A DNA stretch of 18,257 nt from a virus (IMGVR_UViG_3300001507_000013), one strand, 5' to 3'; positions 742 to 1,287 are shown, counted from the first letter of the stretch. Notes: generated by a model not told the origin, from the letters alone. Made by a program: numbers and translations.

Positions 742-1134
742 ATGGCAAATGTAAATGAATTATTAAACAAATATTCTAACGGTGGCGCAAAATTTGAATA
801 CGACAATGAAAAAGAAAGAGAATATATCAAATTAGGTGAATTGGATATGTCAAAAACATACCCTATTGAAGCGTTATTCATCAATACGAAAGGTATATTT
901 GGTGACCAAGGTGTCATCATTAGTGGTGACTACATTGTCAACTTACCTAATCACTTAACAGAAATGATTGAAGATATGCGACAAGATAGTGAAATGGTTG
1001 ACGCAATTAATCAACGTTTATTTGATTTTGAAATTTATGAATTTGAATCTAAAAAATATAATCGTGTATCACACAGTATTAATTTAGTACCTAGCGAAAA
1101 TGTGAAAAAAGAGGCACAATCTGAAAAAAAGTAA
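742..1134 (+). CDS. Putative phage ssDNA-binding protein, 130 aa as encoded, apparently lacking its C-terminal tail
   Basis: AAGGAG RBS. It is the third gene of the left arm, where staphylococcal picoviruses carry their SSB (from memory). A stranded SSB-type tail ending DDDIPF lies just downstream in another frame (1143-1235). The function call is indirect. Confidence 0.5.
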   Translation: MANVNELLNKYSNGGAKFEYDNEKEREYIKLGELDMSKTYPIEALFINTKGIFGDQGVIISGDYIVNLPNHLTEMIEDMRQDSEMVDAINQRLFDFEIYEFESKKYNRVSHSINLVPSENVKKEAQSEKK

Positions 1135-1142
1135 AAAATTAG

Positions 1143-1235
1143 AAACGCAACCCGTTTGAACCTAATGACGGTCGAAGAGGTTTCTCAAAAGCAAATGGAC
1201 CAATAGAAATAACTGACGATGATATACCATTTTAA
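1143..1235 (+). pseudogene. Detached 3' coding remnant encoding an SSB C-terminal tail (KRNPFEPNDGRRGFSKANGPIEITDDDIPF*)
   Basis: Thirty sense codons with no start codon, in the frame of positions divisible by 3. TAG at 1140-1142 bounds it upstream. It ends in the canonical bacterial SSB tip DDDIPF, and a terminator follows directly. Confidence 0.6.
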
Positions 1236-1247
1236 ATACAACTAAAT

Positions 1248-1270
1248 AAAGGGGCTTTGTCCCCTTTTTT
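1248..1270 (+). terminator. Rho-independent terminator or attenuator after the first three genes
   Basis: AAAGGGG (1248-1254), loop CTTTGT, CCCCTTT, then a T6 run to 1270. The next gene's RBS follows at once with no room for a promoter, so downstream genes need read-through. Confidence 0.6.
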
Positions 1271-1287
1271 ATTATGGAGTGATAAAA

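Follow-up and report, generated by a model that had tools for sequence, protein, structure and literature searches.

What is a bacterial-type docking tip of an SSB (a protein that binds single-stranded DNA) doing behind the stop codon of a phage SSB gene, in a different reading frame? The locus that raises this question lies in the viral genome IMGVR_UViG_3300001507_000013, analyzed as one strand of 18,257 nucleotides (nt; "the window" denotes this whole stretch), a complete and clean genome of an Andhra-like podophage (Rountreeviridae, Andhravirus), a group whose hosts are coagulase-negative staphylococci. An initial annotation, made from the sequence alone, noted that an open reading frame (ORF) of 130 amino acids (aa) ends beside a dnaX-type heptamer with the tip stranded behind it, and offered four explanations: homopolymer sequencing error, a genuine tail-less SSB, translational bypass, or transcriptional slippage. 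We observe that the out-of-frame layout is the natural norm of the genus rather than an error, and that the window adds a new allele to a polymorphism already known to matter for defence. The overall best explanation, to which we assign a probability of roughly 0.6, is a genus-wide cassette with a putative -1 frameshift that is closed in this window.

The coordinates of the ORF, heptamer, TAG, tail, and terminator were all confirmed on the sequence, and the elements of the junction itself are as follows.

742-1134, plus strand: SSB (gp03 homologue) core ORF, 130 aa, end ...SEKK (TCT GAA AAA AAG TAA, with the TAA at 1132-1134)
1125-1131, plus strand: slippery heptamer A_AAA_AAG, in X_XXY_YYZ phase with the SSB frame (GA/A AAA AAG), abutted by the 0-frame stop
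1131-1142, plus strand: codons read in -1 following a slip, GTA AAA AAT TAG (V K N stop)
1143-1235, plus strand: stranded tail, 30 sense codons KRNPFEPNDGRRGFSKANGPIEITDDDIPF (1143-1232) and TAA (1233-1235), with the tip DDDIPF at 1215-1232

The tail does lie out of frame, as first described. What had been missed is that reading from 1143 continues the SSB ORF in its own -1 frame, with the TAG at 1140-1142 as the sole interruption. The initial annotation was correct that no single event joins the two parts in this genome: the -1 frame runs from the heptamer through VKN into the TAG, the +1 frame meets a TGA at 1157-1159, and neither a start codon nor a join of frames nor any one recoding event connects the tail to the ORF, leaving the tip untranslated as part of an ssDNA-binding protein. 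The TAG aligns with a GAG (Glu) codon in relatives, with the tail starting at the next codon (after the heptamer, GTA AAA AAT TAG AAA CGC in the window versus GTA GA[A/T] AA[C/T] GAG CGA CG[T/C] in relatives). The smallest repair is not the two 1-nt deletions once proposed; a single substitution, T1140 to G, would bring back the GAG codon seen in relatives and needs to be combined only with either a -1 slip at the heptamer or an extension of the run of seven A residues (A7) to eight (A8). What is specific to the window is the TAG, together with a lost hairpin described below, and not the frame offset. The junction allele found no match in viral_contigs or genome_contigs, none of the proteins in the protein search carries the tail of the window, and A_AAA_AAG sites elsewhere in the genome are too few to read any phase bias.

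Could the tail still be made here, either by a -1 slip combined with read-through of the UAG or by a bypass from AAG (1129-1131) to AAA (1143-1145)? The 30 sense codons are pristine and the DDDIPF tip intact, in keeping with strong past purifying selection, and matched Lys take-off and landing codons flank the stop codons. However, a tRNA search of the window found no phage tRNA able to act as a suppressor, four nearer AAA landing sites (1133-1138) all lie in unproductive frames, no significant local structure is present (z = -0.7), and the arrangement occurs in no relative, so that nothing conserved speaks for a hop or for selection on it. We therefore consider residual production of the tail highly improbable, and the bypass proposal is not supported. 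Transcriptional slippage fares no better, since any inserted A still leads into the TAG and does not rescue the tail.

The layout was compared across 17 GenBank relatives, 83 SSB clusters from independent assemblies, and roughly 45 related loci (cultured phages, IMG/VR, ENA, and Logan). What varies at the junction among the 17 GenBank relatives is the length of the poly-A run.

A8, tail in frame: Andhra (169 aa) and Pontiff (155 aa)
A7, tail in the -1 frame: BESEP3, Pike, V1SC05, SeAlphi, St 134, and PSU3 (six laboratories), as well as the window
A6, tail in the +1 frame: among GenBank relatives, the S-CoN_Ph series only

The SSB clusters mostly end in ...[E/G]KK-stop (68 of 83), with two A8 in-frame clusters, three to four of the A6 type, and eight with short in-frame tails and no heptamer; A7 makes up about 92% of the run-bearing clusters and A8 about 3%. 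Most of the roughly 45 loci read GAAAAAAAG-TAG, with the -1 tail open directly from the heptamer in nearly all of these, and the others have an A6 run or, with A8 or no heptamer, a tail in frame. Every related allele with the run has the heptamer unchanged, and, apart from that of the window, only three distinct tail haplotypes do not have the -1 frame open from it. One allele (L049) has a GAA-to-GGA change that cuts the A-run to six, yet A_AAA_AAG and an intact tail are retained, and a clade with a core only about 65% identical (L043/44) shows GAA AAA AAG TAG followed by a divergent -1 tail, VDKNHRNPFSHATGSELENDDLPF. We reject homopolymer error at the A7 run of the window, because A7 is the population norm and the remaining 19 genes are intact although 19 homopolymers of at least 7 nt are present. 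The alignment to relatives, which the initial annotation had proposed as a check on whether the SSB ORF runs continuously through the tip, gives a split answer: the ORF is continuous in A8 Andhra and Pontiff and interrupted in most others (A7, -1 tail), with the tail frame conserved.

With respect to the A6 state, we rejected the S-CoN_Ph series as a +1 arrangement, because these genomes are assemblies from Oxford Nanopore Technologies (ONT) R9.4.1 reads only (PMC11001980) and independently assembled metagenome or Logan contigs with the same alleles show A7 (L047 for Ph28, L020/L034 for Ph32). The records in which A7 is called as A6 are GenBank OR354851-OR354858 and OR354840 (L001, L005-7, L010-11, L014, L016-17, L045), and the general caution for annotation is that ONT-only genomes miscall the A-run. 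Two Logan loci from outside the S-CoN study (L058 in ERR10300147 and L059 in ERR12018801) have A6 with intact +1 tails and may be real -1 length variants or errors. In some S-CoN records, numerous ORFs are also broken (73 features within 18 kb in Ph35). Two records look like chimeric assemblies: Ph34 (25,977 bp), which combines parts from two distinct Andhraviruses, and Ph17, an 88-kb record with an Andhravirus fragment in it.

The tail frame is not only open but constrained. There are 21 distinct tail haplotypes, all with lengths that are multiples of 3 (72, 75, 78, or 105 nt), with a variable middle between a conserved RNPF at the start and a conserved D[D/E]D[L/I]PF at the tip, giving a -1 consensus for relatives of ...RRNPF...PIDISD[D/E]D[L/I]PF-stop. 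Compared with relatives, the tail of the window has ratios of non-synonymous to synonymous polymorphism (pN/pS) of 0.04 to 0.68, below 0.36 in 13 of 14 comparisons; against L045 there are seven synonymous differences and one non-synonymous. The only lineage with an internal TGA (L040-42, contigs with P0074 in the 129-aa clade) reads FAQ[S/A]N-stop-PIDITDDL[P/T/S]F, with one Asp lost and tips of PF, TF, and SF in its three contigs, the decay that is expected once translation stops; the tail of its sister allele, L049, is intact. Every haplotype without an internal stop has an intact tip ([L/I]-[P/A]-F), mostly PF and AF in L060. By these comparative measures, the -1 tail is under selection in the genus.

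Bacterial SSBs end in an acidic tip (SSB-Ct), ...DDDIPF in Escherichia coli and ...DDDLPF in Firmicutes. The tail of the window ends in ...ANGPIEITDDDIPF and then a stop, that is, an acidic run and [I/L]-P-F at the very C-terminus with a flexible linker before it. The motif D[DE]D[IL]PF plus stop is expected by chance only 3e-5 times per window and is found in none of 300 shuffles, while a 30-codon open stretch is by itself unremarkable (P about 0.1). In tblastn searches, the 30-aa tail matches the C-termini of oligonucleotide/oligosaccharide-binding (OB)-fold SSBs from staphylococcal siphophages. The SSB of phiSLT (Pfam PF00436) ends in NPFANANGPIEISDDDLPF and the ssb product of S. epidermidis pSep6-3, a 41-kb plasmid-like element, in NPFANANGPIDISDDDLPF, and the podophage relatives have RRNPFAHANGPIDISDDDLPF; positions 1181-1236 of the window are 82% identical at the nucleotide level to the 3' end of pSep6-3 ssb. 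These matches bear out the host-type tip first noticed and mark the tail, on sequence grounds, as a canonical staphylococcal SSB docking peptide; judging by its identity to host-type tips, it would bind host partner proteins. With the 30-aa tail as query, HMMER returned two matches only among 1.8 billion representatives, both uninformative, and a PDB sequence search with the tail peptide gave no match.

Signals of the kind that promote frameshifting flank the heptamer in relatives, and the window retains them in part.

1111-1114, plus strand: Shine-Dalgarno-like GAGG, with a 10-nt spacer 5' of the heptamer

An element of this type 10 nt upstream reproduces the spacing of dnaX, and GAGG is found at this same distance in all 129/130-aa-class alleles of the scan (12 distinct upstream contexts). 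Most relatives additionally have an 8-bp hairpin, GAGCGACG-UAACC-CG(U)UCGCUC, starting about 8 nt 3' of the heptamer, with 89.6% of cells paired and single-sequence z values of -1.5 to -5.2; in L043, this position is taken by another hairpin, of 11 bp (z = -3.2). The 138-aa class, with a constitutive in-frame tail and no heptamer, is by inspection without this hairpin. In the window, the in-phase heptamer and the Shine-Dalgarno-like element are present, and there is no stimulatory structure 5 to 9 nt 3' of the heptamer: both hairpin arms are altered, leaving only AAACG/CGTTT and no significant fold. An Rfam scan turned up neither a frameshift element nor another family of relevance.

The window also differs from relatives within the tail.

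1159-1185 (approximate, as the boundaries depend on the alignment), plus strand: 27-nt in-frame linker insertion (about EPNDGRRGF), identified by alignment and unique to this genome

This insertion was not found in viral_contigs, genome_contigs, or the rest of the window, and an origin by internal duplication was rejected, there being no second copy in the window. It creates a weak hairpin at 1149-1182 (AACC..UUUGA.CC / GGUCGAA..GGUU), 6 nt past the -1-frame TAG, which is not significant against shuffles (z = -0.7). One may ask whether the lesion of the window is itself an artefact or a laboratory-passage mutation, with the natural phage having GAG at 1140-1142 and an ordinary cassette. Neither the junction nor the insertion occurs in any other assembly, the allele being a singleton, and a single G-to-T change explains the TAG. 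On the other hand, the assembly has no broken genes, the TAG is a substitution outside a homopolymer and thus not a typical sequencing error, and the flanks and hairpin arms differ from relatives too, which fits a genuinely divergent allele. We consider such an origin of the lesion improbable.

Taken together, the usual 3' layout in the genus is a core ORF whose stop codon comes immediately behind an in-phase A_AAA_AAG, about 25 to 30 -1-frame codons encoding a docking peptide of the pattern NPF...PI[D/E]I[S/T]D[D/E]D[L/I]PF, and then a terminator. In relatives, most ribosomes would terminate and yield a tail-less SSB, while a fraction would slip -1 on the heptamer, helped in many alleles by the GAGG 10 nt upstream and the hairpin about 8 nt downstream. 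The slipped ribosomes would add the tail, producing a second isoform able to dock on host SSB partners, and the frameshift product of relatives would be recognizable by the peptides VDNER / RNPFAHANGPIDISDDDLPF. In the window, a slip would give Val-Lys-Asn and then the TAG. With the -1 frame closed and the hairpin gone, the phage most likely makes only the tail-less SSB, a conclusion that we hold with good confidence and that agrees with the second of the original explanations; the output would be the 130-aa protein, with a 133-aa product in trace amounts at most. The tail, intact in sequence, would then be a remnant silenced not long ago, which recombination or one reversion could switch back on.

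Genus-level recoding by a -1 frameshift, suggested by the arrangement of these elements, stands in our estimate at about even odds. The points in its favor are the in-phase heptamer at the stop, the fixed GAGG, the positioned hairpin (including the non-homologous one of L043), the GGA variant, the dominance of A7, and the intact tails, to which we add the lack of frequent A7-to-A8 escapers in published assays. The fuller proposal is that Andhraviruses make two SSB isoforms by a dnaX-like -1 frameshift, a major tail-less one and a minor one with the host-type tip, that "truncated" alleles are wild type and A8 phages escape variants, and that in the window nature has knocked out the frameshift isoform alone; this we put forward tentatively, at slightly worse than even odds. 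Two-isoform, dnaX-like expression of a phage SSB is apparently an unpublished hypothesis.

The tail has a known phenotype. The initial annotation had linked podophage SSB alleles to sensitivity to a staphylococcal nuclease-helicase defence, and this link holds: Nhi (SERP2475) blocks phages with a truncated gp03 SSB, and restoring the C-terminus confers resistance (Bari et al., bioRxiv 10.1101/776245). Andhra and Pontiff, with full-length gp03, infect the Nhi-positive strain RP62a, while JBug18 (5-nt insertion) and Pike (1-nt deletion) have "truncated" SSBs and are completely blocked (bioRxiv 10.1101/776245); the Pike deletion is the A7 state. Ten JBug18 recombinants gained resistance through 60 nt of Andhra (1302-1362; bioRxiv 10.1101/776245), an interval that corresponds to the A-run and most of the tail, and in a 2026 review Nhi is listed with "phage SSB detection (truncated)" as its trigger (PMC12904381). 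That SSB tails are stranded in this genus, and that this matters for defence, is hence already known. The tail of the window is out of frame with its gp03 core through the same A7 junction as Pike, and by analogy with JBug18 and Pike, the only phages for which this phenotype is on record, the phage is predicted to be Nhi-sensitive. Both cultured A8 phages, Andhra and Pontiff, were isolated on an Nhi-positive host and therefore may be selected escape variants.

JBug18 and Pike share with the window the gene, the genus, and the out-of-frame tail. The window is nevertheless another phage, and its lesion is not theirs, combining A7 with a TAG in the -1 frame, loss of the hairpin, and the 27-nt insertion in the tail; identity with JBug18 was rejected on the number of coding differences from Andhra, 1,074 for the window versus 705 for JBug18. 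Bari et al. and the review (PMC12904381) treat the alleles as mutations and report neither the natural majority nor the cassette. In our literature search, likewise, we found no report that the "truncated" state is the natural majority, none of a frameshift-like cassette at this SSB locus, and none linking the two cultured A8 phages to isolation on an Nhi-positive host.

Several observations weigh against a genus-wide frameshift cassette, and some of them fit a rival account in which there is no recoding anywhere: A7 would be a plain truncation and the A-run a mutational switch (A8 tailed, A7 and A6 tail-less), the tail being kept by periodic selection for A8, for example in Nhi-positive hosts, or by repair through recombination during co-infection, and the window would be an off-state allele with a second lesion. 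Identical tail haplotypes are paired with both A7 and A8 at least twice, and conservation of the tail could therefore come from occasional A8 phases or recombination instead of recoding; JBug18-Andhra hybrids did arise readily by recombination (bioRxiv 10.1101/776245). All three run lengths (A6, A7, and A8) are found in assemblies, and both cultured A8 phages come from Nhi-positive RP62a. Pike behaves as a null for Nhi resistance: being A7, it is fully blocked where A8 Pontiff is not, so that any frameshift product it makes is insufficient to protect it, although its sensitivity also fits a sensing of the tail-less isoform by Nhi and is neutral in that case. Two lineages, the window and L040-42, have second lesions in the tail, demonstrating that tail loss is possible, and the TAG of the window, as a singleton, is without independent confirmation. 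The flanking signals are not universal either, with GAGG missing in the 144/146-aa class, L043, and L060 (128 aa, with GAGT at that place), and covariation in the hairpin is weak (one covarying pair, and several alleles that break a pair uncompensated). The most distant homologues (P0102-P0105, ending ...WVEL-stop) have no tail in any frame, and our literature search found no paper reporting two SSB products in any Andhravirus.

A pure switch, however, does not readily explain why A7 is the mode in clades down to 65% identity while A8 is so rare. Nhi "completely protects" against Pike, so frequent A7-to-A8 switching is not seen in the laboratory, and the X_XXY_YYZ phase, the fixed distance of the GAGG, the downstream hairpin, and the GGA AAA AAG variant would all be unexpected for a simple switch. 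We regard the absence of recoding throughout the genus as unlikely, though a serious contender, and retain the frameshift cassette as the preferred reading.

Known systems resemble the locus in some respects and differ from it in others. The E. coli dnaX gene, which yields tau and gamma, has the identical A_AAA_AAG, a Shine-Dalgarno-like element 10 nt upstream, and a hairpin a few nt downstream, and in both systems the proteins act in replication and the two products differ (or would differ) by a C-terminal partner-binding region. In E. coli, the shifted product is the short one, whereas that of the Andhravirus SSB would be long and tailed; the 0-frame stop of the SSB also abuts the heptamer, the frameshift is deduced from sequence, and in the window the -1 route is blocked and the hairpin missing. 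Homopolymer slippage is known from the A9 of Thermus dnaX and from A-runs in insertion sequence elements. The locus resembles a contingency locus in that A-run length (6, 7, or 8) sets the downstream frame and natural length variants exist, but the run is short for efficient polymerase slippage, the A6 of L049 keeps the heptamer, and no frequent switching occurs in published plaque assays. With regard to the peptide, the tail of the window follows the phiSLT/pSep6-3 pattern NPFAxANGPI[D/E]ISDDDLPF near residue for residue, partly also at the DNA level. The bacterial SSB-Ct, however, sits on a PF00436 OB fold, whereas the Andhravirus tail goes with a non-Pfam core typical of phi29-like phages and is joined to no ORF here.

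Other routes to a tailed SSB are seen among the relatives. The 144/146-aa class (L002/L009 and others) has a 12-nt direct repeat, ACGTAACCCGTT, with copies 59 nt apart about 60 nt upstream of the tail, one in the 0 frame (QRNPLY) and the other in the -1 tail (RRNPFA), such that removal of a single period puts the tail in frame with the core. A protein that looks to be the outcome of just such a deletion is P0043 (149 aa, ...EPEQRNPFDHANGPIDISDEDIPF), and repeat deletion thus looks like a third route beside A8 and the heptamer-less lineages. The latter comprise S. aureus-type podophage SSBs (P0085-P0101) and the 138-aa class (L026, L038, L039), which have short in-frame acidic tails ending in ...DNSEDNLAF, ...SEDTLPF, or ...NDDLAF and no poly-A heptamer.

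The gene block closes behind the tail.

1248-1274, plus strand: intrinsic terminator AAAGGGGCTTTGTCCCCTTT plus T-run (stem-loop 1248-1267), 13 nt past the tail stop

The position of this terminator after the tail is conserved in relatives, and the next gene, a gp04 homologue, starts at 1288. Across the whole genome, the window is 96.6% identical to S-CoN_Ph28 and 95.7% to St 134, with the SSB region more divergent (at most 89.5% identity to relatives). The SSB core shares 91% identity with residues 1-130 of Andhra gp03 and has 105 homologues in the search. A Pfam scan of the core (742-1131) and a PHROG search with the core alone gave no match, while full-length Andhra gp03 matches phrog_378 (SSB; 7e-13). 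An AlphaFold2 (AF2) model of the core (predicted local distance difference test score, pLDDT, 81.5) has the RPA70N OB fold as its best PDB neighbor, a weak OB-like match (E = 0.05, template modeling [TM] score 0.37), and the "SSB" label of the core rests mainly on annotation transfer and on the tail. Complete Andhravirus contigs of ~18 kb (those encoding the proteins P0013, P0023, and P0065) lie inside assemblies or metagenome-assembled genomes labelled Staphylococcus haemolyticus, Pseudomonas oryzihabitans, and S. epidermidis, and are probably phage carried along in binning.

The SSB's C-terminal end is already known to decide whether the Nhi nuclease-helicase stops these phages. What the data establish is the anatomy of the sequence, its homology, the allele frequencies in the population, the signature of selection, and, from the literature, how related alleles fare against Nhi. 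We infer both the occurrence and the efficiency of frameshifting in relatives, as well as the Nhi sensitivity of this phage; if no frameshifting takes place, the locus is still a clear defence-relevant homopolymer polymorphism. If the out-of-frame tail is wild type and supplied by frameshifting, the published contrast of "truncated versus full-length" would be re-read as "two isoforms versus one," and the window would be a natural control without the tailed isoform. Typing of therapeutic Andhra-like phages, or their engineering by an A7-to-A8 change of the A-run, could then address host range where S. epidermidis is Nhi-positive, and the ratio of tail-less to tailed SSB would be a tunable parameter at the interface between phage and defence.

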